NCBI GenBank assembly: GCA_041918515.1
Contig: JAYRVO010000170.1
Span: 3,526-67,525 of the forward strand
DNA: 64,000 nt
Origin: Chloroflexota bacterium
Lineage (GTDB): Bacteria; Chloroflexota; Anaerolineae; J102
Reading direction: 5' to 3'
This document shows positions 31,301 to 46,647 of this stretch, one piece after another. Position numbers and translations under genes: made by a program. Position 1 is the first letter of the stretch, and each line of letters opens with the position of its first letter. Below the pieces are notes generated by a model. It worked only from the letters and a program-made list of their open reading frames with translations. It was not told where the DNA came from and did no database searches.

Positions 31301-34300
31301 CACCACGTATCGCGTCGATCTGTACGCCAACACCACGTGCGATCGTTCTTTTTATGGCGAGGGCGAAAGCGTGTTGGGCCAAATCGCTGTCACCACCAAC
31401 GCCCAGGGCAATGGCTATTTCAGCACGCTGTTGCCAACTCAGCCCAACGGTGTGGCCCTGACCGCCACCGCGACACAGAATCCGGGCACAGGGTTGGCGA
31501 ACACCTCGGAATTCAGCCAGTGCGCCGTCGTTGGCCCCAACAACGACACTTGGGCCAATGCCTATCCTGTCTCGCTAACGCCCGTCGCCGTGGGCGAATC
31601 GTCCGGTTCGGCCAGCCAATATATTTCAGCCTCGGGCCAAACCCGCTGGTTCAAGTTCGCCGCCGCACCCAACAGCACCGTCATCATTGACCTTTCCAGC
31701 CTGCCGGCCAACTACGACCTGACCCTCTTCCGCGACATCGCCAAAACCTATGACCGCTTGCGCCAGCCGCAAGACGTCAACGAACTGGCCTTGCTGTCGG
31801 CTGAATTCGCGCCGGAGATGTTCACGCCGGAGATGTTCACACCGGAGATGTTTACGCCGGAGATGTTCACCCCCGAAATGTTCACGCCGGAGATGTTCAC
31901 ACCGGAGATGTTTACGCCGGAGATGTTCACCCCCGAGATGTTTACGCCGGAGATGTTCACCCCCGAGATGTTTACACCGGAGATGTTCACCCCCGAAATG
32001 TTCACGCCAGAGATGTTCACCCCGGAGATGTTTACGCCGGAGATGTTCACCCCCGAAATGTTCACGCCGGAGATGTTCACCCCCGAAATGTTCACGCCGG
32101 ACCGGCGCTACTATGCCGGGGCGTTGGCGCAGAGCGCGGTGGCTGTCAGTGCTTTCGAGGGCACAGCGCCGGAGTCAGCGGTGGCCAACACCTGGAACGA
32201 AAGCGGCGAGTTCTATGTCAACGTGACCGGCCGCAATGGCGCTTATGATCCCACGGCGCCGTTTGACCTGCGGGTGACGGTGCTGGGGGCCGAGTGCAAC
32301 GGCCTCACCGTGCTTGACGCGGCGCCCAACCTGGGCATCTTGCCGAATGGCGGCTATGCCACGCTCTTCCTCGTCGATTCGCAGCGCATGGGCGTTGATT
32401 ACAGCGCCATTGCCTCGCAGTTGAACACCCTGGCGGGACACCCGGCAGTCAATGGCGTCATTGTAGATGTATCGCAATTTAGCGAGATCGCCGCCGCCAA
32501 CGCTCAGGCCGACCAGCTTTATCAGTGCGTCTATGCCAAGAACATCGTCGCCTACGGCATCAAGGCAGTTGTCGATGCCTATCGCGCCGCCAACCCCAGC
32601 TTGCGCTACATCGTGCCGGTTGGCAACGACGATGTGATCCCGTTCTTCCGCTACCCCGATCAGGCGCTGCTGGCGAACGAGAGCGGCTATGTGCCGCCCG
32701 TGCTCGAGACCACCGCTTCGCAGGCTTCGCTGCGCCACGGCTACGGTCTGTCGCAAGACACCTACGGGGCGGCCATCGAGCTACAGCGTCGCAACACCCG
32801 CTTGCCGTTGCCCGAGCTGGCAGTGGGCCGCCTGGTGGAAACTCCAGCCGAAATCAACGCCACCATCGCCGCCTTTTTGGCGAGCAATGGCACGCTGCCC
32901 ACTCCCTCCCGTGCATTGGTCACCGGCTACGATTTCCTGTCCGACGCCGCCACGGCCATCCAGCAGGATTTGACGGCGGGGCTCGGCGTGGGGGGCTCGG
33001 TCACCCCGCTGATCGATGCCGCCACCACGGCCCCGGTCAACGGCTGGACGGCCGATGATCTGCGCACTGCCTTGCTCGAAAGCGGTCGCCACGACCTGAT
33101 TTACTTGGGTGGCCACTTCAGCTCGTTCAGCGCCCTGGCTGCCGACAACAAAACTCGCGTGCTGGCGTCTGAATTGCTGGCCTCCAGCGTGGACATGCGC
33201 AACGCCATCATCTTCAGCAACGGCTGCCACTCCGGCTACAATCTGGTGGCCGGCCACGCCGTGCCCAACGTCTCGATCGAGCCTGATTGGGCGCAAGTGT
33301 TTGCCGCCAAGGGCGCCATCCTGATCGCCGGTACGGGCTATCAGTACGGCGATACGGATTTCACCGAGTATGGCGAGCGCCTGTACTTCCAGTTCAGCCG
33401 TGAGCTGAGGCGGGGCAGTGGCGTTGTTTCGGTGGGTGAGGCGCTGGTGCGCGCCAAGCAGGTCTACCTCAGCGAAACCGCCGAGATGCGGCCTATCCAC
33501 GAGAAGACATTGCTCACCGCCACGCTTTTCGGCCTGCCGATGACCACCGTCGATATGCCGGGCGAGCGCTACAATCCAGCTTCCGGCGTGACGCTGGTCT
33601 CGCTCACGCCGGTGGCAACCAATCCCGGCGCCATGCTGGGCCTGAAGACCTATGATTTGACGGTGACCCCGAATCTGGTGCGGGTGGACAAGCCCCTGCA
33701 GAACATCGTCGATAACAGCCTGACCAACACCGTCTATTACCAGGTTGCCAATTCCGACCGCCTGGTGATTAACCCCGGCGAGCCAGTCTTGCCCCTCGAC
33801 CTGCACAAGCTACGGGCCACTGATACCCTTGTGCGCGGCCTGGGCTTCCGCGGCGGCAGCTACACCGACGTGCTCAATGTGATCCCGCTCACCGGCGCCG
33901 CCACCACCGAACTGCGTGGCATCCACACACCCTTCATCAGCAGTGTCTTCTATCCGGTGACGCCGTGGGATGTCAACTACTTCGATACGCTGGCCAATTC
34001 GGTGGCCGGCGGGTTCATCGGTGTAGGCGCAATTCCGGCGCAATTCCGCTCCAACGGGCCGAGCAGTGTGGATGGAACCATGCGCGTGTACAACAGCATG
34101 AACTTCCGCCTGTTCTACAGCAGCAACACCGCCGCCTACGAGAACCAGACCTACGACATCACCAACATCCCGGCGCTGGCCGGGCCTCCGGCCATCAGCA
34201 AGGTGACGTCCGCAGCCAACGGCGGCGTGCAGGTTGCCTTCCGCGTCACGGTCACCGGCGATCCTTCCGCCGGAATCCAGGCGGTTTGGGTCACCTACAC

Positions 34301-36632
34301 CAGCGACCAGGCACCGTTGGCCGGACAGTGGCAATCGCTGGACTTGTCGCAAGACCCGAACGACTCGCGCGATTGGGTGGGCGTGCTGGACCTGCAAGGA
34401 ACTTCATCTGCGCACTTGCGCTACATGGTGCAGGCAGCCAATGGTGTTGGCCTGGTCTCGTTGAACACCAACAAGGGCGCCTACTTCCTGCCGGATACCG
34501 ATCCGGCCACCCCGTCGGCACGGCCCGAAGACGCTACTCCGCCCGACCCCGTGGAATTGGTCTTGCTCAGCCCAACGTCCAGCGGTGAGTATGGCACCGA
34601 TGTGACTTTCTCGGCCCGCCTTACCCGCAATGGGGCGCCGTTGGTGGGTGAAACGCTGGAGTTCGGGCTCACCAGCCAGCGCCAATCGGCAGTCACGGGC
34701 GCCAACGGCATCGCCACGGTCACGCTAACGGTGATCGGCGACCCCGCAGATGACACCATCCGCGTCACCTATCCGGGCGCCCCCGGTCTGACCCCAGCGG
34801 CGAACGCAGCGCCATTCACGATCCAGCCCATCCCCACCCTCCTGCAAGTGCTGACCCAAACGCCGACCTTCAGCACAGGCGGCCCAGCCGACCTGTCCAT
34901 TGCCCTCACTGACGCCACTGGCCGGCCGCAGCCGTACAAGTCCGTGCTGATCGTCGTCACCAACGGTGGCGGCGGCGTTGCCTTTGCACAGGCTGTGCAA
35001 ACCGATCTCTACGGCAACGCCCATCTGCGCACGGTCAACCTGGCCGACGGCAGCTATCAGGTGCATGCCTACTTTGCCAGCCGCGTCACGTTGCCTGGCA
35101 TTGGCACGGTGGATATGCGCCTGCCGCGCTTCACCCCCATCCAGACGCCGGCCATTGGCCAACCTCCCGTCGTCATTCGCACCAACACGCCGCCGGTGGC
35201 GCGGCCTGGTGGCCCCTACGACGTCAATGAAGGCGGAAGCGTCGTGCTGAATGGCAGCGCCAGCTCGGATGCCGATGCGGGTCAGGTGCTGACCTTTGCC
35301 TGGGATCTCAACCACAACAGCGGCTTCGAGGTGCAAGGCCCCACACCGACGATGTACGCCACCATGCTCAATGGCCCGGCATCCGATACGGTGCGCCTGC
35401 GCGTGTGCGACCCGATCGAGTGCACGATCGCTACGGCCACGCTCAATATCCGCAACGTGCCACCGACGATCATCAGCATCGCCAACAACGGCCCTGCCGA
35501 TCCCAATCAGACGGTTACGATCTCTGTCACCGCCGACGATCCGGTCGATGTGCTGAACTACAGCTTCGACTGCGATAACAACGGCGTCTACGAGATTGGG
35601 CCCCAGGCCAGCTCACAGGCCGGCTGCTCCTATACGATGCCGGGCAACTACACGGTCAGAGTGCGGGTGCAAGATGGCGCCGCTGCGGTCACGGGAACGA
35701 CGATCGTGAACATCAAGGCCAAAGAGCCGCCAACCGTCAACGCCGGCCCCGATCTGGTTGGCTTTGCCGGGGTTTCGCTCGCTTTTGCCGGCTCCTACAC
35801 TAACCCGCAGGGCGCGCCGCCGTACACCTTCACCTGGACCTTCGGCGATGGCGGCACGGCCACCGGCGCCCTCAACCCCCTGCACACTTACAACACTACG
35901 GGCGTGTTTACGGCCAAACTGACCGTGCGCAACGGCTACAACCTCGAAGGCAGCGACACAGCCCGCATCACCATTTTGCCGAACTACCTGACCTACTGCA
36001 TCCTGGCCGGCAACGACATGGTCAAGCTAGATAAAGATAGCACGTTCACCAACTGTCGCATCGGCGCCGCTCAGCAGATCGATGTCAAGGCCAGCAGCAC
36101 ATTCAACAACAGCCCGCTCAGCCCTATGCTTGGCCCCATTTCCTGGCAGCCCCTGAATCTGACCGCTGGGACCCAAAAAATCCAGGTCGAGAAGAACGGG
36201 ACCGAAACGCTTGCTCCGGGCAGCTATGGCAATCTGGAAATGAAAGATGGCGCCACACTCATCCTCACTGACGGCCACTATCGCTTCCAGGAGTTCAAGA
36301 CGCACAAGAACCCTGCACTTGTTTTCAACCTGGGCGGTGGCAGCATCGTGATCGACGTCGTCGGTGATGTCGAGTTTGGCGATGAAGCACGCTTCTCGAT
36401 CAACGGCGGTGATGCCAGCGACGTGCTCTTCCGGTCGATGGGCAACCATCTGAAGCTCAAGAAAGATGGTCAATACCTGGGCACTTTCCTGGCGCCGCAA
36501 GCAAAGATCACTTTGGAGAAGGGCAACACCCTGACCGGGGCGCTGTTCGGCAAAGCGATTGACATTGACAAGGAAAATGCTGTAACCTACCGGCTGGCGA
36601 CCGATGCGTTCGTCATGTTGTACGGCGAGTAA
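28344..36632 (+). CDS. giant secreted multidomain protein (2762 aa): signal peptide, two CSLREA domains, a right-handed beta-helix with polymorphic-membrane-protein-type repeats, about 19 PEMFT repeats, a caspase-like His/Cys peptidase domain, three PKD domains and an ice-binding-like (DUF3494-type) C-terminus
   Basis: Signal peptide MRRLFVLIVIVLAAFLFVDHTAVRA. GECTLRAAVQEAN and NCTLREAINAAN match the CSLREA domain. The GGHFSS...SNGCHSGY His/Cys dyad resembles clostripain/gingipain-like peptidases. PKD motifs are present (WDLNHNSGFE, FTWTFGDGGT). The C-terminal 200 aa resemble the ice-binding-like fold. The RBS is AGGAG. Confidence 0.8.
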   Translation: MSSRPDFGWHDRATLPFTMRRLFVLIVIVLAAFLFVDHTAVRANSFTVNSTADVVDANPGDGVCETATPGECTLRAAVQEANAFGGDDEITLPAGTYTLTLAGSGDGGGDLDHGSCCDRVTITGAGSAVTTISAAGLGDRIFDIQNGTLTLTGVTLTGGNVVGHGGAILFSETSGGAELSDVVITGNSATASGGGVYIGTGSLSVVNSTISNNQAGGDGGGIFTSLMTNVILENSQVSGNTAVGGGNGLGLEGGTANVTLLDTSTADNISLASNAQLILDGAIGGSLDGVIDGVGTVTKIGTGTYTLSQWNNLSGPNPATGPFDIQAGILHITHPLALGNFFNGVTTVQNGATLLYDGQPQNGVYYMPDWRLTLNGAGVNGQGALHFVAGGAGFQGPITLATDSTIRDDAPSYNPDHLQGAITGPGSLTKTGSGRIMLHTGTNTYGGATIVQQGDLNVHVSGAIPATSDVTVAAGASLSIGDYPDNFAFPSGPVNQTVATLQGSGQIYLGGPLGAGALTVGNASDFTFDGTFADSGGVGSLIKTGAGAMILTHPGGNWAGSLTIQQGVVQTENLAGNANIALGAASLTVNMTADGVYNGVISGTGGLIKTGANTLTLTGANTFSGLTDVQAGRLNINGTHAGNVAVTGAGAALGGTGTINGTVSVAAAGFLSPGNSPGILNVGDTTLTAGSTFEVEITGNTPGVGGYDQLNVTGFVVIDTGAPGVTLSSLFPAPPYTPQLGDQYVIINNDDSDLVTGTFAGLPEGATINADFGGSLYSGVISYVGGDGNDVVITVITVQRTFVVNATADTDDGTCNALNCTLREAINAANAHVNAATPDAIHFNIPGAGPHTVQPTTALPAITNAVIIDGSTDPNGAIGLDGSLAGAGVPGLAISSSGSALTGLGITGFSDAGVSMLAGTGNVFIANRIHTNGGLGIDLGNDGVTRNDFLDADGGPNQRQNAPILQRVYAALGGLRVQGVLNSAANTTYRVDLYANTTCDRSFYGEGESVLGQIAVTTNAQGNGYFSTLLPTQPNGVALTATATQNPGTGLANTSEFSQCAVVGPNNDTWANAYPVSLTPVAVGESSGSASQYISASGQTRWFKFAAAPNSTVIIDLSSLPANYDLTLFRDIAKTYDRLRQPQDVNELALLSAEFAPEMFTPEMFTPEMFTPEMFTPEMFTPEMFTPEMFTPEMFTPEMFTPEMFTPEMFTPEMFTPEMFTPEMFTPEMFTPEMFTPEMFTPEMFTPEMFTPDRRYYAGALAQSAVAVSAFEGTAPESAVANTWNESGEFYVNVTGRNGAYDPTAPFDLRVTVLGAECNGLTVLDAAPNLGILPNGGYATLFLVDSQRMGVDYSAIASQLNTLAGHPAVNGVIVDVSQFSEIAAANAQADQLYQCVYAKNIVAYGIKAVVDAYRAANPSLRYIVPVGNDDVIPFFRYPDQALLANESGYVPPVLETTASQASLRHGYGLSQDTYGAAIELQRRNTRLPLPELAVGRLVETPAEINATIAAFLASNGTLPTPSRALVTGYDFLSDAATAIQQDLTAGLGVGGSVTPLIDAATTAPVNGWTADDLRTALLESGRHDLIYLGGHFSSFSALAADNKTRVLASELLASSVDMRNAIIFSNGCHSGYNLVAGHAVPNVSIEPDWAQVFAAKGAILIAGTGYQYGDTDFTEYGERLYFQFSRELRRGSGVVSVGEALVRAKQVYLSETAEMRPIHEKTLLTATLFGLPMTTVDMPGERYNPASGVTLVSLTPVATNPGAMLGLKTYDLTVTPNLVRVDKPLQNIVDNSLTNTVYYQVANSDRLVINPGEPVLPLDLHKLRATDTLVRGLGFRGGSYTDVLNVIPLTGAATTELRGIHTPFISSVFYPVTPWDVNYFDTLANSVAGGFIGVGAIPAQFRSNGPSSVDGTMRVYNSMNFRLFYSSNTAAYENQTYDITNIPALAGPPAISKVTSAANGGVQVAFRVTVTGDPSAGIQAVWVTYTSDQAPLAGQWQSLDLSQDPNDSRDWVGVLDLQGTSSAHLRYMVQAANGVGLVSLNTNKGAYFLPDTDPATPSARPEDATPPDPVELVLLSPTSSGEYGTDVTFSARLTRNGAPLVGETLEFGLTSQRQSAVTGANGIATVTLTVIGDPADDTIRVTYPGAPGLTPAANAAPFTIQPIPTLLQVLTQTPTFSTGGPADLSIALTDATGRPQPYKSVLIVVTNGGGGVAFAQAVQTDLYGNAHLRTVNLADGSYQVHAYFASRVTLPGIGTVDMRLPRFTPIQTPAIGQPPVVIRTNTPPVARPGGPYDVNEGGSVVLNGSASSDADAGQVLTFAWDLNHNSGFEVQGPTPTMYATMLNGPASDTVRLRVCDPIECTIATATLNIRNVPPTIISIANNGPADPNQTVTISVTADDPVDVLNYSFDCDNNGVYEIGPQASSQAGCSYTMPGNYTVRVRVQDGAAAVTGTTIVNIKAKEPPTVNAGPDLVGFAGVSLAFAGSYTNPQGAPPYTFTWTFGDGGTATGALNPLHTYNTTGVFTAKLTVRNGYNLEGSDTARITILPNYLTYCILAGNDMVKLDKDSTFTNCRIGAAQQIDVKASSTFNNSPLSPMLGPISWQPLNLTAGTQKIQVEKNGTETLAPGSYGNLEMKDGATLILTDGHYRFQEFKTHKNPALVFNLGGGSIVIDVVGDVEFGDEARFSINGGDASDVLFRSMGNHLKLKKDGQYLGTFLAPQAKITLEKGNTLTGALFGKAIDIDKENAVTYRLATDAFVMLYGE
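31811..32100 (+). repeat. about 19 tandem copies of the 15-bp unit gccggagatgttcac, encoding (PEMFT)n
   Basis: Visible directly in the sequence. The period is 15 bp with synonymous variation (aca/acg/acc, gaa/gag). Confidence 0.95.
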
Positions 36633-36670
36633 GACATCTATACTGAGTCCAAGGTGGAATCCGCAGGTCA

Positions 36671-36701
36671 GAAACCCGGATTCTGCGAGAATCCGGGTTT
36701 C
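36671..36701 (+). terminator. hairpin terminator after the giant gene (13-bp perfect stem), followed by a second GC-rich hairpin at 36735-36768
   Basis: GAAACCCGGATTC-tgcgag-AATCCGGGTTTC. The second hairpin is GCGGGGCGGGTTT..AAACCCACCCCGT. Confidence 0.55.
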
Positions 36702-36789
36702 TCGCTGCGCTCTTCACTTTGGAATGAGTTTAGAAAAGCGGGGCGGGTTTTAGTCCAAACCCACCCCGTCCACCAGCACGGGATGACAC

Positions 36790-37275
36790 ATGAGCTTGCG
36801 GACCTTTTTCGAGTACCCGACCGAAATAGCCGCCGAACAAGAGGACGCCCTGCTCTTCCTGCCGCAATGGACGGAAGAGCAGTGGCGCAAGCTGTCCACC
36901 TACACCGGCAAGCTGCGCCTGAGTCCTGGCGATGACTTGATCCGCATGGGTGAGTCGGATCGCTCGTTCTATATCGTCACTGCCGGCCAGTTCGAGATTC
37001 TCATTCCCCGCAAAGGATCGAGGCAACTCCAGCGTACACAGATTCGCGAGGCGGGCACGGTCGTGGGCGAACAAGCGTTCATCGACGGCAAATCGCGCTC
37101 GGCCACGGTGCGGGCGCTCACGACTGCCGAGGTGTTGCGCATCAACCCGACCGCATTCGAGGTGCTATCGGCCCGTGAGCCGGATCTGGCCCGTGACATT
37201 TTGCTCGACCTGGCCCGCCTGCTGTCGATCAAGCTGCGCCAGGCCAATACCTTCATCGCCAATTGGGTCAAGTAG
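36790..37275 (+). CDS. cyclic nucleotide-binding (CAP-effector-domain) protein
   Basis: cNMP-binding fold with ...GESDRSFYIVTAGQFEI...GEQAFIDGKSRSATVRALT. Confidence 0.75.
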   Translation: MSLRTFFEYPTEIAAEQEDALLFLPQWTEEQWRKLSTYTGKLRLSPGDDLIRMGESDRSFYIVTAGQFEILIPRKGSRQLQRTQIREAGTVVGEQAFIDGKSRSATVRALTTAEVLRINPTAFEVLSAREPDLARDILLDLARLLSIKLRQANTFIANWVK

Positions 37276-37280
37276 CGGCA

Positions 37281-39935
37281 ATGACGGTCACACAGACGCC
37301 TTTCCCCAATTTCATGCAGTTGCGCGCCGAGTCGCGCGTGCCGTCATGGATGTGGCAGGTCGCACGTATCTTGGGTTTGGTGATAGCGCTGGGGCTCGTT
37401 CTGATGTTGTTCATCGCTCCAGCCATGGGGTTGAAGCTCTTCTGGGGGGTGGCGGTTCCTGTGCTGCCGCTGGTATTCGTGGCCGCCCCCGGCTTGTGGC
37501 GAAATACTTGTCCGATGGCCACGCTCAACCAGCTTCCCCGCCTGTTCAATCTCACGCGCGGGTTGACGCTGCCAAAATGGCTGCAAGAATATGGCTATGT
37601 GATCGGGTTCATCCTGTTTTTCGTGCTGGCTTCCAGCCGCAAGTGGCTATTCAACAGCAACGGTGCAGCCACGGGCATCCTGATGCTGGCAATGCTCGCC
37701 GCCGCCGGCATTGGCGGTTTGTTTTTCAAGGGCAAGAGCGGCTGGTGCAGCAACATTTGCCCGCTGTTGCCCGTACAACGCCTCTACAATCAGACGCCCT
37801 TTTCTTTGATCGGCAATAGCCACTGCGCGCCGTGTGTCGGCTGCACCAAAAACTGCTACGATTTCAACCCGCGCGTCGCCACCCTGGCCGATCATTACGA
37901 CGACGACCCCTACTATCGCAACTACCGGCGCTTCTTTGCCGCCGCCTTTCCTGGCTTCATCATCGCTTTCTTCACCCTGCCCAGTCCACCCACTCTATCC
38001 ATTCCCCTGTTCTATGCCGCATTGGCAGCCTATTTGCTGGCGAGCGTGGGAGTTTATTACGTGGTGGACACCTTCGTGAAGGCGACTCCGTTCAAGATCA
38101 CGACCGGTTTTGGGGCGCTGGCGCTTAACCTGTTTTACTGGTTTGTCATCCCACTGTGGCTGGGCAATGTCACGGGCTTGCTCGGCAGCGCCCCCGGCGC
38201 CCTCCCCCTGATCTGGCTGGCCTGGCTGCTTCGCCTCGGCCTCTTGACCCTGACGCTCATCTGGCTACAACGTTCGTTCGCCAAGGAGCCGATCTTCATC
38301 GCCCAGCTGATGCCGAGTGAGCCCACGCGCGTCTCGGCGGCGGCGGTGCGGGTGCTCGACAAAGCCAGTGAAGGCGCCATCGAAGTAGTCCTGGCCCCGG
38401 ACGAAAGACGCCTGCTAACCGAGCCGAAGCGCACCCTGCTGGAAGTGGCCGAGCGCAACGACGTGCGCATCGAAGCCGGCTGCCGCATGGGCGTGTGCGG
38501 GGCCGATCCCATCGCCGTTCTCAGCGGCGTCGAAAACCTGGGCGACTTGAAAGCGGATGAGAAATCGACGTTGGAACGGTTGGGGTTGGGCGGAAACGCC
38601 CGCATGGCGTGCATGGCGCGTGTGCACGGCCCAGTCACATTCACGCTCGACCTCAAGCAGGCGAAGGAAGCGGCGGCGGCGCCAGCCCAAACTCACGATG
38701 AGAACGTCCACACCGTCGTCATCATCGGCAACGGCGTGGCCGGCGTGACCGCAGCCGACTACGTGCGGCGCTATCATCCAACGTGCGAGATCAACCTGAT
38801 CGGGCGCGAGAGCCATCACTTTTACAACCGCATGGGCATCGCCCGGCTGATCTACGGGCGCTCGGCCATGAACGGACTCTTTTTGCAACCGCACGAATGG
38901 TACGAGCAGAAGCACATTACGGCCTGGCTCAACACATCGGTTCAAGCCATCGATCCCGATCGACACCGGGTCAGCCTGGCCACCGGCGAAGAACTGCCTT
39001 ACGACCGCCTGATTCTGGCCACCGGCAGCAGCAGCTATGTGCCGCCCATCGCCGGCTTCGACCGGCCAGGTTGCTTCGTACTGCGCGAAGCCGACGACGC
39101 CATCGCCCTGCGCGCCTACATCCAAACGCATCGCGCCCGCCACGCCGTAGTGGCCGGCGGCGGACTGCTGGGCCTGGAAGCGGCGTATGCTTTGAAACAG
39201 TTGGGGATGCGCGTGACGGTGCTGGAGCGCTCCGACCGTCTGCTCAAACGCCAACTCGACGTTCGCGGCAGCGCCCTGCTGCGCCAATATCTGGAAGCAC
39301 TGGGCATGGCCTTCGTGCTCGAAGCCGAGTGCGCAGCCGCCGAAGGCAGTCCCGCCGGCGACACCAACCTGGCGGCGGTGAGCTTGAAGGACGGACGCCA
39401 GCTCCCCGCTGAAGTGTTGCTTGTGGCAGCCGGGATTCGCCCCAACACCGATATAGCCCAAGCGATGGGTCTGGCTTGTGAGCAAGGGATCATCGTCGAT
39501 GCCGGCATGCGCGCCAGCCTGCCCGACATCTTTGCCGCCGGAGATGTATGCCAGTTCGAGGGCAAGCTTCCGGGCCTGTGGCCGGTGGCAGTCGAGCAGG
39601 CGAAAGTCGCAGCCATCAACGCCGTTGGCGGCGACCAGGAATACACACCCGTGGTGCCGGTCACCACCCTGAAAGTGGCCGGCGTCGACCTGACATCCAT
39701 CGGCCGCATCGAGGCCAGAGATGCCAACGAACAAACCATTGCCCTCGAAGACGGGGACAATCACTTTTATCGTAAGCTGGTATTGGCTGACAACAAAATC
39801 GCCGGCGCCATCCTGCTGGGCTACCCTCAGCTTGCCCCGGCTGTGACTGCGGCGATCAAGCAGCAGCGCGACGTGGAGCCGCACCTGCAATCGTTGCAGC
39901 GCGGCGACTGGTCTGTGCTCGAGCAAACTGACTGA
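37281..39935 (+). CDS. fusion protein: a NapH/NosR-like polytopic membrane domain with a CxxCxxCxxxC 4Fe-4S motif, a 2Fe-2S ferredoxin-like domain and an FAD/NAD(P)-dependent pyridine nucleotide-disulfide oxidoreductase
   Basis: HCAPCVGCTKNC and CSNICP lie within a region of multiple TM helices. The 2Fe-2S motif is EAGCRMGVCGADPIAV...ARMACMARV. FAD and NAD Rossmann motifs are present (VVIIGNGVAGVTAA and AVVAGGGLLGLEAAYAL). The ATG at 37281 lies 6 nt after the upstream stop. Confidence 0.75.
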   Translation: MTVTQTPFPNFMQLRAESRVPSWMWQVARILGLVIALGLVLMLFIAPAMGLKLFWGVAVPVLPLVFVAAPGLWRNTCPMATLNQLPRLFNLTRGLTLPKWLQEYGYVIGFILFFVLASSRKWLFNSNGAATGILMLAMLAAAGIGGLFFKGKSGWCSNICPLLPVQRLYNQTPFSLIGNSHCAPCVGCTKNCYDFNPRVATLADHYDDDPYYRNYRRFFAAAFPGFIIAFFTLPSPPTLSIPLFYAALAAYLLASVGVYYVVDTFVKATPFKITTGFGALALNLFYWFVIPLWLGNVTGLLGSAPGALPLIWLAWLLRLGLLTLTLIWLQRSFAKEPIFIAQLMPSEPTRVSAAAVRVLDKASEGAIEVVLAPDERRLLTEPKRTLLEVAERNDVRIEAGCRMGVCGADPIAVLSGVENLGDLKADEKSTLERLGLGGNARMACMARVHGPVTFTLDLKQAKEAAAAPAQTHDENVHTVVIIGNGVAGVTAADYVRRYHPTCEINLIGRESHHFYNRMGIARLIYGRSAMNGLFLQPHEWYEQKHITAWLNTSVQAIDPDRHRVSLATGEELPYDRLILATGSSSYVPPIAGFDRPGCFVLREADDAIALRAYIQTHRARHAVVAGGGLLGLEAAYALKQLGMRVTVLERSDRLLKRQLDVRGSALLRQYLEALGMAFVLEAECAAAEGSPAGDTNLAAVSLKDGRQLPAEVLLVAAGIRPNTDIAQAMGLACEQGIIVDAGMRASLPDIFAAGDVCQFEGKLPGLWPVAVEQAKVAAINAVGGDQEYTPVVPVTTLKVAGVDLTSIGRIEARDANEQTIALEDGDNHFYRKLVLADNKIAGAILLGYPQLAPAVTAAIKQQRDVEPHLQSLQRGDWSVLEQTD

Positions 39936-39956
39936 GTTTGGATAGAGAAGATAGCT

Positions 39957-42900
39957 ATGGATACACCCAGCGCCTATATCCCAATTGACCGGCGTCACGC
40001 CCTGGCGCGCGGCGCAACACTACCGGAGCGCGCCGAGGGCGCGGCCCTCTTTGCCGATATCTCCGGCTTCACGCCGCTGACCGAGGCATTGGCGCTCGAA
40101 CTTGGCCCGCGTCGCGGCGCCGAAGAACTCACCGTCCACCTCAACCGCGTCTACGACGCCCTGATTGCCGAATTGGAACGCTACGGCGGCAGCGTGATCG
40201 GCTTCAGCGGCGACGCCATCACTTGCTGGCTGGATGGCGACGATGGCCGTCGCGCCACCGCCGCCGCACTGGCCATGCAACAAGCGATGCGCCGGTTCCA
40301 TGAAGTGCGCACGCACTCCGGGCGCATCGTCTCATTGGGGATGAAAGCGGCTGTGGCGACGGGGCCGGTGCGGCGCTTCGTCGTCGGCGACCCTGAGTAC
40401 TGTCTGGTGGACACAATGGCGGGAGCAACGCTGGAGCGGCTGGCCGCAGGCGAACACCAGGCCGAGCGCGGCGATGTCATCGTCGACGAGGCCACCGCTG
40501 ACAACTTGGGAGCCGGGCTCGTCGTCTCGGCCTGGCGGCAGGAGTCCGAAACCGGCCGCCGTTTCGCCGCCATCAGCGAGCTCAACCTGGCCGTGCCGGA
40601 AACCCCTTGGCCCGATCTTGGCGAAGCGGCTTTGGCGGGCGAGATCACATCATCTTGGGTGCTTCCACCCGTCTACGAGCGGCTGAGCGCCGGATTGGGC
40701 GAATTCCTGGCCGAGCTACGGTCGGCATTCGCCCTCTTCTGCCGCTTCACAGGCATTGACTACGACCGTGATCCAGAGGCGCCACAGAAGCTGGATCGTT
40801 TCGTCCGCGAGGTCGAGCGCATCCTCGCCCGCTTCGACGGTAGCCTGATCCAGCTCACCATCGGCGACAAGGGCAGCTATCTCTACGCCGCGTTCGGCGC
40901 GCCGATCGCCCACGAAGATGACGCCGAGCGTGCCTGCGCCGCCGCGCTAGAAATCCAAGAGCTGGCGACGACGCTGTCCTACATTGACGTGCTGCAAGTG
41001 GGCGTGACGACGGGCCGAATGCGCACGGGCGCCTATGGCAGCCGCACCCGGCGCACCTATGGCGTGCTGGGCGACGCCGTCAACCTGTCGGCGCGGCTGA
41101 TGTCGGCGGCGCGGCCAGGCCAAATCCTGGTCAGCGACGCCGCCCGCGCCGCTGCTGGCGATCGTTTCGCCTGGGAGGTGTTGCCGGCGATCCGCGTCAA
41201 AGGCAAGAGCGAGCCGGTGGCGCTGGCGCGGCTAGTGGGGCTGAAGCGAGCCGAAACTGTGCGCCTGCAGGAGCCAGTCTACCATCTGCCGATGGTGGGC
41301 CGCGCCACAGAACTGGCGCTCGCCGGCCAGCAGATCGAGCGGATGGCCGCCGGCCAAGGCCAGATCATCGCCATCACCGCCGAAGCCGGCATGGGCAAGA
41401 GCCGCCTGGCCGCCGAAGTAATGCGCCTGGCGCGCAACCGGCTACGCGGGCTGGTCGCCCTGGGAGGCGAATGCCAGTCATACGGCGCCACCACCGCCTA
41501 CCTGGTGTGGCAGAACATTTGGCGTGGATTCTTTGATTTGGATGGGGGTCTTTCGCTCGAAGCCCAGGTTGCCGCCATCCACGAACAGCTAGAGCGGCTC
41601 GATCCCAACCTGCTACCGCGCTTGCCCTTGCTCGGCGCCGTGCTCAACCTCGCCATCCCCGACAATGATCTGACACGCGGCCTGGACGCCAAGACCCGTC
41701 GCTCCGCGCTCGAAGACATGCTGGTGCAACTCGTGCGCGCCCGCGCCCGCACAGCGCCTGTGTTGCTCGTGCTGGAAGATTGCCACTGGCTGGACGACCT
41801 CTCGCGTGAGCTGATCGGTGTTGTCGGGCGCGCCATCGCCGGCCTGCCGGTGCTGATGCTACTGGTCTACCGCCCGCCCGATCAAGCCGGCGAGCAGGCG
41901 CCACCCGTTGGCCAATTGCCGCACTTCACCGAAATCGCCCTGACCGAGTTCACCCCCGCCGAAACCGAGCAGCTCGTGGCGCTCAAGCTGGCGCAGTTCT
42001 TCGGCGAGGGCACGGCTGTGCCCTCAGCGCTGCTGGAACGTGTGAGCACGCAGGCCGCCGGCAATCCATTTTACATCGAGGAGCTGCTCAACTATCTGAA
42101 AGATCTCGGCATTGCCCCGACCGACACAGCCGCCATCGCCGCCGTGGATTTGCCCACGAGCATCTATGCGCTGGTGCTCAGCCGCATCGATCAGCTCAAC
42201 GAAAGCCAGCAGTTGACGATCAAGATTGCCAGCGTCATCGGCCGCCTGTTTCGCGCCGCCATGGTCTGGGGCATCTATCCCGATCTGCCTACCGGCGAGG
42301 TGCAGCGCAACCTCGATCTGCTGAACAACCTGGAATTGACTCCCCTCGACACGCCCGACCCCGAGCTGGCCTATCTGTTCAAACACATCACCACGCAGCA
42401 GGTGGCCTACGAGAGCCTGCTCTACGCCACCCGCGAAATGCTGCATGAACAGATTGGCGGCTACATCGAGCGCGCCTACGCCGCCACGCTCGACCAATAC
42501 ATCCACTTGCTGGCCTATCACTACGATCACAGCGCCAACCTGGAGAAAAAGCGACACTACCTGCTGCAGGCTGGCCGGCTGGCGCGCCGCGCCTACGCCA
42601 ACAGCGCCGCCATCATCTACTTCGAAAAAGCGTTGCCACTGCTTGAGGGCCGCACCCTGGTGGATGCGCGGCTGGATTTGGGCAAGGTGCTGGAATTGAC
42701 CGGCGCCTGGGATGTCGCTCGTGACCAGTACGACACGGCGCTGGCCGAGGCAGCCGGTCTCGACGACCGCTCGGCCGTGGCCTGGTGCCAGACGGCCCTG
42801 GGCGAACTGAGCCGCAAGCGCAGCCGCTACGATGAGGCGCTCGACTGGTTCGGGCAAGCGCTGATAACCTTCGATAATCTTGGCGATCAGGCGGGGATGG

Positions 42901-43637
42901 GGCAGTTGTTGCACTACACCGGCACGCTGGCCGCGCAGCAGGGCAATTTTGTGCTCGCCAACCAGCGCTACACCGCCAGCCTGGAGCTGCGGCGGACGCT
43001 GGGCGACCGCGAGAATGAGGCCAACGTCCTCAACAACCTGGGCATTGTGGCCCGCTATCTGGGCAACAATGACGCCGCCCGCGGCTACCATGAGGCGGCG
43101 CTGGTCATTCAGGAGGAGTTGGGCAACCGCTGGACGACCGCAGCGATCCACAACAATCTCGGGCACATGGCGATTGACAGCGGCGACCTGGGCTATGCCC
43201 GCCGCCAGTTGGAGCAGGCGCTACTGGTGTTCCGCGAGATCGGCGAGCGCTGGGCGATCACCAATACGCTGCACAATCTGGCGAACGTGGCGCGCGATGA
43301 GGGGGATGCGTCTGAGGCACGGCGGCTTTATCGGGAAAGTCTGGATGGCTGGCAGATGCTCAACGACCGTTGGGGATTGGCGTACTGGCTGGAGGATGTG
43401 GCGCTGCTTCACGTTCGCCAGCAAGCGCCGACCCGGGCCTTCGAGCTGATCGGCGCGGCCGATGGGCTGCGCGAGGCTGTCGGCAATCCGCGTCCCCCCG
43501 CCTATGCCGGCAAACTTGAGACACGGCTGGCGCCGGCCGCCGCGTTGCTGACCGAGACCGACCGTGCTGCGGCCCTTCTGCGCGGCCGCGGCCTCTCGAT
43601 TGATGCCGCTATCACCCAGGCGTTTGCCGATGGGTAG
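39957..43637 (+). CDS. adenylate/guanylate cyclase with two tandem class III cyclase-homology domains, a STAND (AAA) ATPase and C-terminal TPR repeats
   Basis: CHD1 is LFADISGFTPLTE...FSGDAITCW. CHD2 is LIQLTIGDKGSYLYAAFGAP...GDAVNLSARL. The P-loop is AEAGMGKSRLAAE. TPR-like NLG(I/H)...G motifs recur toward the C-terminus. Confidence 0.85.
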   Translation: MDTPSAYIPIDRRHALARGATLPERAEGAALFADISGFTPLTEALALELGPRRGAEELTVHLNRVYDALIAELERYGGSVIGFSGDAITCWLDGDDGRRATAAALAMQQAMRRFHEVRTHSGRIVSLGMKAAVATGPVRRFVVGDPEYCLVDTMAGATLERLAAGEHQAERGDVIVDEATADNLGAGLVVSAWRQESETGRRFAAISELNLAVPETPWPDLGEAALAGEITSSWVLPPVYERLSAGLGEFLAELRSAFALFCRFTGIDYDRDPEAPQKLDRFVREVERILARFDGSLIQLTIGDKGSYLYAAFGAPIAHEDDAERACAAALEIQELATTLSYIDVLQVGVTTGRMRTGAYGSRTRRTYGVLGDAVNLSARLMSAARPGQILVSDAARAAAGDRFAWEVLPAIRVKGKSEPVALARLVGLKRAETVRLQEPVYHLPMVGRATELALAGQQIERMAAGQGQIIAITAEAGMGKSRLAAEVMRLARNRLRGLVALGGECQSYGATTAYLVWQNIWRGFFDLDGGLSLEAQVAAIHEQLERLDPNLLPRLPLLGAVLNLAIPDNDLTRGLDAKTRRSALEDMLVQLVRARARTAPVLLVLEDCHWLDDLSRELIGVVGRAIAGLPVLMLLVYRPPDQAGEQAPPVGQLPHFTEIALTEFTPAETEQLVALKLAQFFGEGTAVPSALLERVSTQAAGNPFYIEELLNYLKDLGIAPTDTAAIAAVDLPTSIYALVLSRIDQLNESQQLTIKIASVIGRLFRAAMVWGIYPDLPTGEVQRNLDLLNNLELTPLDTPDPELAYLFKHITTQQVAYESLLYATREMLHEQIGGYIERAYAATLDQYIHLLAYHYDHSANLEKKRHYLLQAGRLARRAYANSAAIIYFEKALPLLEGRTLVDARLDLGKVLELTGAWDVARDQYDTALAEAAGLDDRSAVAWCQTALGELSRKRSRYDEALDWFGQALITFDNLGDQAGMGQLLHYTGTLAAQQGNFVLANQRYTASLELRRTLGDRENEANVLNNLGIVARYLGNNDAARGYHEAALVIQEELGNRWTTAAIHNNLGHMAIDSGDLGYARRQLEQALLVFREIGERWAITNTLHNLANVARDEGDASEARRLYRESLDGWQMLNDRWGLAYWLEDVALLHVRQQAPTRAFELIGAADGLREAVGNPRPPAYAGKLETRLAPAAALLTETDRAAALLRGRGLSIDAAITQAFADG

Positions 43638-43670: not shown

Positions 43671-45896
43671 ATGACCCTACAACCATCTGCGCCTGTCGGC
43701 ATGATTGCCACTTTGCGCCGGTCGCTGGCGGCCTGGCGACGGCACTGGCGGCTTGGCCTGCTGATCCTGCTGGCCCTGTTCATCCAGCAGCTATTTCAGA
43801 CCTTTTTCGCGTACGCGCTCAAGTTGATCGTAGATTCCGTTCAGAAGGGCACAGCGATGTCGGGGCTGGTGGTGATTCTGTTCGCCCTGGCGTTCGGGTT
43901 CGTCATCAACGCCTTTGCTGCGCTCGGTGGCGATCGACTGGTCGCGCGAGCATCAGGCCTTCTCATGGGCGACTTGCGTCGCCAGCTCTACGAGAAGCTG
44001 CTCGGAATGTCGGCCGCCTTCTATGCGCGCATGCCGCCGGGCGACATCCTTTCGCGCTTCACGAGTGATCTGGATGTGATCCAACTCGGCTTCACGATGG
44101 CGACCTTCAACACCACGCTGTTGCTGCTGGGGCTGATCATCAACTTGCCGGTGATGTTCTCGCTCTCAGGGCTACTCGCCGTGGAGACGTTACTCCTCCT
44201 GCCACTGATCCTCATTTTCGCCCGCTATTTTGTGCCGAGGGCAGGCGAGACGACCTATCTCTTCAAGCAGGCGCAAGGCGCGCTTACAAATACGGTGCAG
44301 GAAACGGTGCGCGCCCAGATGGTCGTCAAGGCGTTTGGCCTGCAGGAGTTCTTGAACCATCGTTTCGGCGGTGCGGTGGCAGACCTGACCGAGGCGACTG
44401 TGCGCTCCAGGTTCGCCATTGCTATCGTCAGCAAGGGATCGGCCCTGCTGCTGCTGCTGATCCAGATCGTGGTGGTGATGACCGGCGCGCTCCTGGCGCT
44501 GCGCGGCGAGATGTCGGCCGGGTCGCTGGTGGCGTTCATCAGCATCCTCGGCGTGGTCACCAACGACACGCTTCAGTTCGCCAAGCTCGTCGTGCCCGCG
44601 CTGATCGACGCCGGCAGCGGCTTCCGCCGCCTTGATGAGATTCTGCAAGCAGCGTCCACCGTGGTTGATCAGCCGGATGCGCGGCCGCTGGCGCGTCTCA
44701 GCAACGAGATCCGCTTTGACCAGGTTGACTTCGGCTATACCCGCGAGCATCTCCACCTGTCACATCTCTCCCTGACGATCCGCCAGGGCCAGGCGGTCGC
44801 ATTTGTCGGCCCGAGCGGCAGCGGCAAGAGCACCGTGCTCGGCCTCTTGCAGCGTTTTTACGAGCCATTGCGAGGACGCGTCCTCCTGGATGACCAGGAC
44901 ATCTGCGCGGCGACCCAGGATTCTTTGCACAGCCAGATCGGCGTGGTCTTTCAAGAGAACTTCCTGTTCAACACCTCTATCCGGGAGAATATCCGCCTGG
45001 CGCGGACGCAGGCGACCGATGACGAGATCGAAAAGGCTGCTCGCGCCGCCGAAATCCATGATCTGATCATGACATTGCCGCACGGCTATGACACAGGCGT
45101 GGGCGAGGCTGGCGGACGACTCTCTGGTGGCCAACGACAGCGCATCGCCATCGCTCGCGCCATCCTGCGCGACCCGGCCATCCTCATTCTCGACGAGGCG
45201 ACCTCCGCGCTGGACCCCGGCACCGAGGCAGCCATCAACGAGACGATCGGCCATCTCACCCGCGGGCGCACCGTCATCTCCGTCACACATCGGCTGGCCT
45301 CGGTAACGGGATTGGATCAGATCTTTGTCATGCAGAAGGGCAAGCTGGTCGAGCAGGGTACGCACCGCTCGTTATTGGAACAGCGCGGTCTCTATTACCA
45401 TCTTTGGCAGAAACAGAGCGGCTTCGAGATCAGCGGCGACGGTCGCTTCGCTCAGGTGGATGCCGTGCGCCTCAAGCGCATGCGTCTTTTCGAGCAGGTT
45501 GAGATGGACAGGCTATCTCATTTCGCCGATCAATTCCACTCGGAATTCTTCGACGCCGGGCGGAATGTCATCGTGCAAGGTGAAGTGGGTGACAAGCTTT
45601 ATTTGATCGTGCGCGGGACCGTCGATGTTCTGGTGTTGGACCAGGAAGGTAAGGAACAGCATATCGAAAGGCTGGAGGACGGCGATCATTTCGGCGAGAT
45701 GGCATTGTTGCTCGATCAGCCGCGCAGCGCCACCATTCGCACGGTGACGCCGAGTCTCTTGCTCAGCCTATCGCGCGAGCAGCTTTTCCTAGTGCTCGAA
45801 CGTTTCCCAGAATGCCGGCCTGCCATCGAGCAACGCATTGCCCAAAGCCAATCCAATCTGGCCGCATTGCAGAGTCGCGCGGCAAAACCGTCATGA
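43671..45896 (+). CDS. ABC exporter (fused TMD and NBD) with a C-terminal cyclic nucleotide-binding domain
   Basis: Six TM helices, Walker A GPSGSGKST, signature LSGGQRQR and Walker B ILILDEATS. A cNMP-binding domain follows (LYLIVRGTVDVL...GEMALLLDQPRSATIRTV). Confidence 0.85.
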   Translation: MTLQPSAPVGMIATLRRSLAAWRRHWRLGLLILLALFIQQLFQTFFAYALKLIVDSVQKGTAMSGLVVILFALAFGFVINAFAALGGDRLVARASGLLMGDLRRQLYEKLLGMSAAFYARMPPGDILSRFTSDLDVIQLGFTMATFNTTLLLLGLIINLPVMFSLSGLLAVETLLLLPLILIFARYFVPRAGETTYLFKQAQGALTNTVQETVRAQMVVKAFGLQEFLNHRFGGAVADLTEATVRSRFAIAIVSKGSALLLLLIQIVVVMTGALLALRGEMSAGSLVAFISILGVVTNDTLQFAKLVVPALIDAGSGFRRLDEILQAASTVVDQPDARPLARLSNEIRFDQVDFGYTREHLHLSHLSLTIRQGQAVAFVGPSGSGKSTVLGLLQRFYEPLRGRVLLDDQDICAATQDSLHSQIGVVFQENFLFNTSIRENIRLARTQATDDEIEKAARAAEIHDLIMTLPHGYDTGVGEAGGRLSGGQRQRIAIARAILRDPAILILDEATSALDPGTEAAINETIGHLTRGRTVISVTHRLASVTGLDQIFVMQKGKLVEQGTHRSLLEQRGLYYHLWQKQSGFEISGDGRFAQVDAVRLKRMRLFEQVEMDRLSHFADQFHSEFFDAGRNVIVQGEVGDKLYLIVRGTVDVLVLDQEGKEQHIERLEDGDHFGEMALLLDQPRSATIRTVTPSLLLSLSREQLFLVLERFPECRPAIEQRIAQSQSNLAALQSRAAKPS

Positions 45897-45951: not shown

Positions 45952-46569
45952 ATGTCTGTGAGCGATCCTGATTTCGAAGGCGCCGTCGCCTACGCGCTTG
46001 GGCGGCTGACCGTCGAACTACCCAACTGCTATGTTTATCATAGCGTGGTTCATACGCGGGACGAAGTGCTGCCGGCCGTCGAGCGTCTGGCCACGGCAAG
46101 CAACATCTCGGGCAGAGACTTCGGCTTGTTACGGGTGGCTGCCGCTTTCCACGATATCGGGTTTATCTACCGCGCCCAAGGCCATGAGATTTGCGGCGTC
46201 CGTATTGCAGCCCAGGTGCTGCCGGGATTCGGCTTCGATGATGAAGCCATCGAGTCTATCCTGGGCATGATCCTGGCCACGCGCCTGCCCCAAAGCCCCC
46301 GCAACCTGATGGAAGAGTTGTTGGCGGATGCCGATCTGGACGCTTTGAGACGAGACGATTTCTTGGAACGCAATGCCGCCCTCGAACAGGAAATGGAGCG
46401 GCTGGGCCGCGGGGTGGAGCCGGCCCAATGGTACGCCGATCAGCTTGCGTTTATGCGCGGCCACAGCTACTTCACCGCCGCGGCCCAAGAACTGTGTGGG
46501 CCAGGAAAGGCGCGCAATCTGCGACGTCTGGAAACGCGGTTGGCGGCCGCGACGAAGTCAAGGAGGTGA
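45952..46569 (+). CDS. HD-domain phosphohydrolase
   Basis: The H..HD motif AAAFHDIGF is present. RBS AGGAG 7 nt upstream. It is the last gene of the co-directional cluster. Confidence 0.65.
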   Translation: MSVSDPDFEGAVAYALGRLTVELPNCYVYHSVVHTRDEVLPAVERLATASNISGRDFGLLRVAAAFHDIGFIYRAQGHEICGVRIAAQVLPGFGFDDEAIESILGMILATRLPQSPRNLMEELLADADLDALRRDDFLERNAALEQEMERLGRGVEPAQWYADQLAFMRGHSYFTAAAQELCGPGKARNLRRLETRLAAATKSRR

Positions 46570-46647
46570 CATGATTTTGCGCGAATTGTGGTGCAGGATT
46601 TCGGCAAGGGGATGCCCAGAGCGTGTGGCGCAGGTGTTCGATGCTTT

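Follow-up and report, generated by a model that had tools for sequence, protein, structure and literature searches.

The membrane modules of NapH, NosR and RdhC share four membrane segments with two CX3CP motifs, to which NapH and NosR add two [4Fe-4S] motifs (PMC5928378). The membrane segments of NapH have been proposed as a quinol-reactive domain, and the CX3CP motifs of these modules have no assigned role (PMC5928378). Through two [4Fe-4S] clusters, iron-sulfur (Fe-S) centres that act at the face of the membrane, CcoG reduces Cu(II); the physiological donor of its electrons is unknown (PMC7558416). The chemistry of the NapH, NosR, RdhC and CcoG membrane modules is poorly understood. Here, we describe a gene in a 64,000-nucleotide stretch of DNA from a Chloroflexota bacterium (contig JAYRVO010000170.1, positions 3,526 to 67,525 of the forward strand; hereafter the window) that encodes, in one polypeptide, a membrane module apparently remotely related to these proteins, a [2Fe-2S] ferredoxin-like domain and a reductase that uses flavin adenine dinucleotide (FAD) and nicotinamide adenine dinucleotide (NAD). 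The gene is preceded by one for a small protein that binds cyclic nucleotide monophosphates (cNMP), and its product is tentatively read as a signal-gated path for electrons from NADH into the membrane.

The open reading frame (ORF) is unbroken from an ATG at 37281 to the stop codon at 39933–39935 and comprises 884 codons plus the stop, so that the protein has 884 residues and not the 885 given in an earlier note on this stretch, made from the sequence alone. A start at an in-frame TTG upstream, at 37263, would overlap the preceding gene, and the ATG at 37281 is consistent with how homologs begin (consensus PxFPNYxQL). The three modules that the earlier note had placed in a single polypeptide are all present, as seen in the AlphaFold2 model of the membrane part and in Pfam matches to Fer2, Pyr_redox_2 and Rubredoxin_C. 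Two things that the note had named as fatal to its proposal, poor conservation of the N-terminal cysteine motifs and a mis-joined assembly of two genes, are contradicted by the homologs. All proposed ligands (C77, C156, C160, C182, C185, C188, C192, D194, C401, C406, D409 and C444) are kept in 68 of 68 full-length homologs, which were drawn from several phyla. The cysteine motifs are also invariant in 98 close homologs, the ligands and dinucleotide motifs are kept in 92–98 closer homologs, and the fusion recurs across more than 90 independent clusters of proteins as well as on a complete Nocardia chromosome. The parts of the gene are as follows.

37281–39935, + strand: the whole gene, 884 residues, membrane Fe-S module, Fer2 domain and ferredoxin-NAD+ reductase (ORF reading, Pfam, homologs, AlphaFold2)
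37281–38315, + strand: eight-helix membrane module, residues 1–345 (AlphaFold2, count of lysine plus arginine, flanking cytoplasmic domains in relatives)
within 37281–38315, + strand: helices at residues 22–45, 47–68, 99–121, 128–149, 210–232, 241–265, 270–301 and 310–343 (AlphaFold2)
37509–37514, + strand: C77-P78 in the motif W73-R-N-x-C-P, after helix 2 (hhalign alignments, kept in 68/68)
37746–37763, + strand: C156-x3-C160-P161 (CX3CP), in GWC156SNIC160P, at the cytoplasmic end of helix 4 (alignment, sub-threshold Fer4_5, kept in 68/68)
37824–37862, + strand: C182-xx-C185-xx-C188-xxx-C192-Y-D194, ferredoxin-type [4Fe-4S] motif in the loop between helices 4 and 5 (sequence, kept in 68/68)
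38313–38369, + strand: poorly conserved disordered linker, residues 345–363, between the membrane and soluble parts (pLDDT below 50, low conservation)
38376–38651, + strand: [2Fe-2S] ferredoxin-like domain, residues 366–457, with candidate ligands C401, C406, D409 and C444 (Pfam Fer2, alignment)
38712–39866, + strand: two-Rossmann FAD/NADH ferredoxin reductase with a rubredoxin-reductase-type C-terminal domain, residues 478–862 (Pfam, PDB hits, Foldseek)

An antisense ORF of 527 codons (38415–39998, − strand) overlaps the flavoprotein-coding part and is most likely a high-GC antisense artefact.

The AlphaFold2 model of residues 1–345, built from 89 homologs, has a mean predicted local distance difference test score (pLDDT) of 91.8 and a predicted template modelling score (pTM) of 0.90, and contains eight long hydrophobic helices with two short interfacial helices around C77-P78. 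Predicted inside loops hold 14 lysine and arginine residues and predicted outside loops none. Relatives carry a cytoplasmic FHA domain before the membrane module and the cytoplasmic flavoprotein after it. Given these flanking domains, the even number of helices and the charge distribution of 14 to 0, both termini of the module are predicted to be cytoplasmic, which would place all seven cysteines on the cytoplasmic face. The topology check proposed in the earlier note thus gives eight helices with every cysteine motif in an inside loop. The CxxCxxCxxxC motif reported there in the polytopic N-terminal third is present as HCAPCVGCTKNC at residues 181–192, and the second cysteine cluster is present as GWC156SNIC160P, with a lone C77-P78 in addition. 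In the ferredoxin-type motif, a tyrosine takes the place of the usual proline after the last cysteine, and the cytoplasmic loop between helices 4 and 5 that holds this motif has low pLDDT in the model, which lacks the cofactor. The invariant D194 could serve as an eighth ligand of the membrane Fe-S centres. The lists of invariant and near-invariant residues contain no histidine within the helices; transmembrane electron transfer through hemes was therefore rejected.

No Pfam or NCBIfam model matches the membrane module above its cut-off. Fer4_5 matches the target at about residues 133–171 (E 9e-4); its scores, 19.6–21.3 bits, lie below the cut-off of 22, and a sub-threshold Fer4_5 match was obtained in 79 of 89 family members. 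The sole NCBIfam match of the module is the NapH model NF007013, at 9.8 bits against a cut-off of 234 (E 0.37). A PDB sequence search with the module returned a chance match to FlhB (E 0.4), and Foldseek against the PDB gave no match at E<1. In profile comparison by hhalign, the family alignment matched Escherichia coli NapH with a probability of 79% (E 1.6e-5), a profile of 24 NapH sequences with 70% (E 3.9e-5), and E. coli YccM, a CcoG homolog, with 82% (E 1e-5; 31% identity over 117 columns), the NapH alignments spanning 111–114 columns. All three alignments place two middle helices and a conserved outer loop in correspondence with NapH and YccM, and pair W73xxxC77P with the first CX3CP of these proteins, whose first cysteine is an invariant tryptophan here, so that C77 is the counterpart of the second. 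GWC156xxxC160P pairs with the second CX3CP (GWCGHICP in NapH, AWCRYLCP in YccM), and C182xxCxxCxxxC192 with the first ferredoxin motif of both. These alignments argue, at moderate strength, for a remote relationship of the membrane module to NapH and CcoG/YccM. The NapH-like membrane ferredoxin of the earlier note is therefore right as to likeness, which is real, and too close as to identity, the likeness being remote and both Fer4_5 and the NapH model falling below their cut-offs.

Where the NapH family has two CX3CP motifs on four helices, the target has one complete CX3CP (C156/C160) plus W73xxxC77P; where NapH has two ferredoxin motifs, it has one (C182–C192), followed by four more helices. 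No nap genes, including that for the partner NapG, were found in the window or among 80 related loci. The module thus forms an enlarged branch of its own within the NapH/CcoG superfamily, distinct from NapH itself.

The Fer2 domain passes its Pfam cut-off at residues 380–448 (25.6 bits against 21) and matches solved ferredoxins at E 1e-6. In the alignment to solved [2Fe-2S] ferredoxins, C401, C406 and C444 fall on ligand positions 1, 2 and 4, and D409 on position 3, the target reading CGAD where the solved ferredoxins read CGTC. The pattern is thus C401-x4-C406-x2-D409...C444 in place of the four-cysteine C-x4-C-x2-C...C, and the aspartate is invariant. The soluble 2Fe-2S ferredoxin-like segment described before is accordingly present as a domain, with three cysteines only and an invariant aspartate at the third ligand position. 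E. coli SdhB provides a precedent for an Asp-ligated [2Fe-2S] cluster. The conserved ligand positions make it likely that the Fer2 domain binds a [2Fe-2S] cluster.

The C-terminal part is a ferredoxin-NAD+ reductase of the TodA/putidaredoxin-reductase type. Pfam Pyr_redox_2 covers residues 478–774 (E 3e-62, 211 bits) and Rubredoxin_C residues 793–862 (E 7.8e-17, 61.5 bits). GxGxxG motifs stand at residues 483–488 and 626–631, and their glycines (G483, G485, G488, G626, G628 and G631) are invariant in the 68 sequences, as is E510. The closest PDB sequences are 3klj (a NirB-family N-terminal dehydrogenase), 8c0z_E (a ferredoxin:NADH oxidoreductase-like subunit), TodA, putidaredoxin reductase and BphA4. 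Over its C-terminal 410 residues, the target matches reductases of this group at E 1e-38 to 3.6e-44 in sequence and with TM-scores, normalised to the target, of 0.83–0.89; the Foldseek match to TodA itself has E 8e-30 and a TM-score normalised to the target of 0.89. E649, followed by R650 in the target, closes the beta2 strand of the second Rossmann unit and is kept in 65 of the 68 sequences. Analogy with E175 of BphA4 and with the NADH-dependent closest folds suggests that NADH is preferred over NADPH.

The earlier note had called this part a complete two-Rossmann FAD/NAD(P)H pyridine-nucleotide-disulfide reductase. The two-Rossmann oxidoreductase is there, but the assignment as a disulfide reductase was rejected, the protein having no active-site cysteine of that type and no redox-active disulfide, and its best folds being TodA, putidaredoxin reductase and BphA4. 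The sole conserved cysteine of the flavoprotein part, C502 (59 of 68), lies 14 residues past the first GxGxxG and before E510, with which the first Rossmann strand-helix-strand unit ends, a position that we take to differ from that of the active-site cysteine of CoA-disulfide reductase or NADH peroxidase. Scores against the NCBIfam equivalogs for disulfide reductases fall far short of the cut-offs, and every other NCBIfam equivalog is likewise below its own. NirB was also rejected: TIGR02374 reaches 308 bits against a cut-off of 578 and matches at model positions 1–389 of 794, which is the N-terminal half only, without the siroheme/4Fe-4S half.

A whole-protein search returned more than 120 clusters with 97–100% coverage and 52–62% identity, mostly from Chloroflexota metagenome bins, and annotated only as "FAD-dependent oxidoreductase" or, wrongly, as "nitrite reductase large subunit". 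The fusion, presented earlier as novel and recommended for a search in other genomes, is not unique to this one: at least 554 loci were found in GTDB species representatives (one genome per species), and the family amounts to about 1000 clusters at 50% identity. The profile used for the cluster search has 478 positions including the Fer2 columns, so that its counts of 1323 clusters at E<=1e-3 and 513 at E<=1e-30 describe the membrane module plus Fer2 and not the module alone; inspection of these matches covered the top 150. Hosts include Chloroflexota, Actinomycetota (Nocardia, Antrihabitans, Solirubrobacterales and Acidimicrobiia), Betaproteobacteria (Andreprevotia chitinilytica, A. lacus, Sulfuritalea and Comamonas) and the gammaproteobacterium Pleionea sediminis. 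Our literature searches on NapH/CX3CP, on cNMP with FAD oxidoreductase and FHA, and on Fer4_5/Pyr_redox_2 found no description of the architecture.

Several variant architectures were recognised. An FHA domain may precede the membrane module; all nine of the N-terminal extensions tested (about 125–175 residues) are FHA domains above the Pfam cut-off. One member has a VWA extension (P0048). A variant of about 1200 residues has a signal/transmembrane N-terminal extension, two tandem Asp-type Fer2 domains and a low-complexity C-terminal tail; this subfamily (P0006, P0024, P0049 (L006/L028), L026 and L030) has neither a cNMP-binding partner nor FHA. The eight-helix module also occurs alone, as proteins of about 340–365 residues (L007, L049, L050, L056, L067 and L071). 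These have no Fer2, FAD or cNMP-binding gene nearby, and their electron donor must therefore be a separate protein. In some long-read metagenome assemblies, the gene is split into an ORF for the membrane part, with or without Fer2, and an ORF for the flavoprotein (L008, L009/L053), with the cNMP-binding gene still upstream; these may be frameshift errors or genuine split forms.

Gene context was surveyed in the 80 best of the at least 554 species-representative loci, with our own ORF calls and phmmer and hmmsearch; 77 of them have enough upstream sequence. In 55 of the 77 (51 under a stricter 600-nt limit), in Chloroflexota, Actinomycetota and Proteobacteria alike, the gene immediately before, on the same strand, encodes a cNMP-binding protein of about 160 residues, and this gene mostly ends about 35 nt or less before the start of the membrane module. 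FHA is fused at the N-terminus in 14 loci, eight of which also have the cNMP-binding gene, and 15 loci have neither. When the neighbouring ORFs of the 80 loci were clustered all against all, the cNMP-binding gene was the sole recurrent neighbour, every other family being confined to 14 loci or fewer; around the Andreprevotia and Pleionea members lie unrelated genes, the proteobacterial flanks being of a housekeeping kind. Placement in a cNMP operon, which had been called unusual, is in fact the most conserved feature of the family's context. This signalling link, treated as incidental in the earlier note, is the most interesting aspect of the family.

Across 56 sequences, namely the cNMP-binding protein of the window and its 55 orthologous partners, the phosphate-binding cassette G-E...R-[ST]-A is well kept, G93, E94 and R103 being present in 90% or more of them, and S104 and A105 in 60% or more. 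The partner has no output domain and must therefore act through protein contact. The same 56 proteins share an N-terminal FFxYP and a C-terminal helix (P.LAR..L.DL.R.L...LR), and the N-terminal cytoplasmic FPNYxQL of the enzyme is equally conserved; these three elements are candidate contact surfaces. The functional unit would thus be a two-gene cassette of reader and enzyme, in which FHA replaces or supplements the reader in some lineages. Among single neighbourhoods, L001 also has a cyclase, an HD protein and another cNMP-binding protein, L003 has a Ser/Thr kinase, L005 has a phosphatase, and L008 has both a GAF-EAL protein and a kinase.

In the window, the cNMP operon around the gene proved real, with a cNMP-binding gene, a cyclase and an ATP-binding cassette (ABC) exporter that itself has a cNMP-binding domain. 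Its elements are listed here.

36670–36702, + strand: terminator-like hairpin with a perfect 14-bp stem (agaaacccggattc / gaatccgggtttct), after the giant PKD/PATR gene (read from the sequence)
36790–37275, + strand: stand-alone cNMP-binding protein, 161 residues, no output domain (Pfam cNMP_binding, E 2.5e-15)
39957–43637, + strand: class III nucleotide cyclase with AAA_16 (STAND-type) ATPase and TPR (Pfam Guanylate_cyc, E 5.5e-16; AAA_16; TPR_12)
43671–45896, + strand: ABC exporter, transmembrane part plus ATPase, with a C-terminal cNMP-binding domain (Pfam ABC_membrane, ABC_tran; cNMP_binding, E 2.3e-21)

The hairpin is likely the upstream limit of the operon. The cNMP-binding protein scores 56.7 bits against a Pfam cut-off of 27.5, and its stop codon is separated from the ATG of the enzyme gene by 5 nt; the following gaps are 21 nt (enzyme gene to cyclase) and 33 nt (cyclase to ABC exporter). 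The cyclase is likely the source of the operon's cNMP signal, and a similar cyclase adjoins the pair of cNMP-binding and enzyme genes in locus L001; about 260 N-terminal residues of the window's cyclase are unassigned. The ABC exporter would be a second cNMP-controlled membrane effector of the operon. The two ORFs after it (45952–46569 and 46588–47106) have no Pfam match. Convergent with the end of the operon is a protoglobin gene (47301–47963, − strand; PF11563, E 1e-28) of the heme-based gas-sensor type, which may be unrelated or a further redox/gas input to the signalling neighbourhood. Directly upstream of the operon, with the hairpin between, lies the gene for a giant surface-type protein of 2762 residues with PKD, PATR and DUF7305 domains (28344–36632, + strand); in L001, a relative with 61% identity, a giant Cadherin/Big_9/HemolysinCabind protein (1–2993) stands just upstream of the cluster of cyclase, cNMP-binding gene and enzyme gene. 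Further upstream in the window is a MalT-like AAA/TPR/LuxR-type regulator of 898 residues (23871–26567, + strand), and one of a similar type occurs near the L006 member.

The combination of modules suggests a path for electrons. NADH would reduce FAD in the C-terminal ferredoxin-reductase domain, and FAD would pass electrons to the putative [2Fe-2S] cluster ligated by one aspartate and three cysteines in the fused ferredoxin domain. From there they would move to one or two [4Fe-4S]-type centres at the cytoplasmic face, held by the seven invariant cysteines and D194, which could accommodate one cubane plus a second cluster with a non-cysteine ligand or a [3Fe-4S] cluster. The direction set out before, from NAD(P)H through FAD and 2Fe-2S to the membrane Fe-S part, holds up as a reading. 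Of the two acceptors named with it, membrane or periplasmic, one at the membrane or its cytoplasmic face agrees with the module, and a periplasmic one is unlikely because all Fe-S ligands are on the cytoplasmic face and the helices have no conserved histidine. A quinone in or on the membrane is favoured, which would be the quinol-dehydrogenase reaction of NapH run in the downhill direction, because the membrane segments of NapH are the proposed quinol-reactive part (PMC5928378) and no soluble or periplasmic partner is conserved. The 161-residue cNMP-binding protein would be a regulatory subunit that couples electron flow to cAMP or cGMP made by the operon's cyclase, and in other lineages the N-terminal FHA domain would do the equivalent job for Ser/Thr-kinase signalling. 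Domains of these two kinds are readers of cNMP and of phospho-threonine, not emitters, and the enzyme is therefore most simply an effector gated by such signals. We tentatively put forward, with a confidence that stops somewhat short of even, a self-contained membrane chain from NADH through FAD and [2Fe-2S] to [4Fe-4S], ending probably at quinone and gated by the cNMP-binding partner or FHA. With rather more doubt, the family may constitute an undescribed class of membrane redox enzyme, a single-chain wire built on an eight-helix NapH/CcoG branch and switched directly by a cNMP subunit or an FHA phosphorylation signal.

Several observations weigh against this proposal. The homology to NapH and YccM is moderate (hhalign probability 70–82%), covers about 115 of 345 residues and does not carry the module past any curated model, and only seven cysteines are available to serve two cubane clusters. 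NDH-2 performs NADH:quinone transfer with FAD alone, so that a chain of three centres looks over-built for the task. The full-length AlphaFold2 model (pLDDT 87.5, pTM 0.67) places the membrane and soluble parts relative to each other without confidence, the linker between them being disordered; a fold search with this model recovered the flavoprotein part only, with TM-scores normalised to the query of at most 0.43. No conserved neighbour in the 80 clustered loci points to an acceptor, and no characterised close relative of the protein was found. Since 15 of the 77 loci have neither cNMP partner nor FHA, regulation is not obligatory; the 80 loci are moreover the closest to the query, and beyond them the cNMP partner and FHA may be less frequent.

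Chief among the competing explanations is a self-sufficient metal reductase of the CcoG/YccM type, in which the same chain would end by reducing Cu(II), or a different metal ion, bound by the thiols of the CX3CP and CP motifs at the cytoplasmic face of the membrane. The module aligns to YccM at least as well as to NapH, and the built-in NADH module would supply an electron donor, the part that is unknown for CcoG (PMC7558416). The neighbourhoods speak against it, as neither the clustering of the 80 loci nor the Andreprevotia and Pleionea flanks revealed a conserved copper or metal-handling gene; the second ferredoxin motif of CcoG is also absent, and there is no ccoGHIS context. To our knowledge, control of a housekeeping metal reductase by cAMP or FHA has no precedent, and we consider this explanation unlikely. 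The near-exclusive tie to signalling readers, with no metabolic partner conserved, would also suit a redox sensor or signalling scaffold, whose flavin and Fe-S centres would report NADH/NAD+, the quinone pool, O2 or NO, and whose state would be read together with cNMP or phospho-threonine to control a downstream process. The cyclases, HD proteins, Ser/Thr kinases, phosphatases and GAF-EAL proteins of individual neighbourhoods, and the protoglobin gene at the end of the operon in the window, fit such a role. A sensor seems quite unlikely all the same, given that cNMP-binding and FHA domains receive signals and do not send them, that no output domain is fused or conserved, and that a catalytic chain kept whole and invariant, from the NADH site through to the Fe-S centres of the membrane, would be costly for sensing.

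Regulation by cNMP or FHA of a self-contained NADH-to-membrane chain also recalls, in its logic, the NADPH oxidases of eukaryotes, with their activation by phosphorylation or by second messengers, and many of the hosts are aerobes (Nocardia, Solirubrobacterales and Pleionea). A regulated oxidase that passes NADH electrons to O2 at an exposed membrane-face cluster would, however, generate reactive oxygen species inside the cell, all centres being cytoplasmic; with no heme and nothing that points to O2, we regard it as highly improbable. An artefact of assembly or annotation that joined a membrane ferredoxin gene to a flavoprotein gene might be suspected from the few long-read assemblies in which the gene is split into two ORFs (L008, L009/L053) and from the existence of stand-alone membrane modules (L007, L049, L050, L067 and L071), but the frame is unbroken in the window and the same architecture recurs in the more than 90 clusters, which stem from independent projects, and on the complete Nocardia chromosome, so that the probability of such an artefact is close to negligible.

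The building blocks of the enzyme are all of known kinds. Three things are new, in that no curated model and no paper that we found covers them: a branch of the NapH/CcoG module with eight helices, the joining of this branch to an Asp-type Fer2 domain and a ferredoxin reductase, and the near-obligate coupling to a cNMP-binding subunit or FHA. A family with an NADH donor in the chain, present in culturable Andreprevotia, Pleionea and Nocardia, would allow electron handling by such modules to be studied conveniently in a single protein. If functional, the pairing with cNMP-binding or FHA domains would stand as an uncommon instance in which a second messenger or a kinase directly controls a redox enzyme of the bacterial membrane; if the gated chain from NADH to the membrane is real, it would constitute a direct post-translational link from cAMP or kinase signalling to electron entry into the membrane. 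For annotation, the gain is that a few hundred to about 1000 clusters (at 50% identity) can be delimited as one family.

Compared with NapH, the target shares a helix hairpin with Cys-Pro motifs at the cytoplasmic ends, followed by a cytoplasmic CxxCxxCxxxC, and a conserved short aromatic/Asn outer loop between the two middle helices. It differs in having eight helices instead of four, a first CX3CP reduced to WxxxCP, and a single ferredoxin motif that closes with Tyr where NapH has two closing with Pro, and in standing outside any nap operon, with no NapG. It is also fused to its own ferredoxin and NADH reductase, by which electrons would run toward the membrane and not from quinol. With CcoG, FixG and YccM, it appears to share a Fer4_5-type core and cytoplasmic Fe-S centres on a polytopic membrane protein, whereas the periplasmic Ig-like domain, the second ferredoxin motif and the ccoGHIS or copper context are missing and a built-in NADH-driven donor is present.

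The flavoprotein part is common in sequence, in fold and in its partner-binding Rubredoxin_C domain to TodA, putidaredoxin reductase, BphA4, rubredoxin reductase and the N-terminal domain of NirB. NirB continues into a siroheme half that the target does not have, and the TodA-type reductases are soluble and reduce a separate ferredoxin or rubredoxin, whereas here a ferredoxin is fused upstream together with a membrane Fe-S tether. In its regulation, the cassette resembles ABC transporters with cNMP-binding or FHA domains, in which a signal reader is likewise attached to a membrane machine; mycobacterial Rv1747, for example, carries FHA domains. Our literature search found no described case of a signal reader regulating an NADH-driven Fe-S flavoprotein. 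A parallel in logic is NqrF of the Na+-NQR, which passes electrons from NADH through FAD to [2Fe-2S] and then to an iron centre held by cysteines of the membrane subunits, and which likewise combines a membrane anchor, Fer2 and an FAD/NADH domain in one polypeptide; the NCBIfam nqrF model weakly matches the Fer2 part of the target (E 0.077). NqrF, however, has an FNR-type FAD/NAD module and a single anchor helix and is part of a six-subunit pump, whereas the target pairs a flavoprotein of two dinucleotide-binding domains with a membrane Fe-S module in the same chain.

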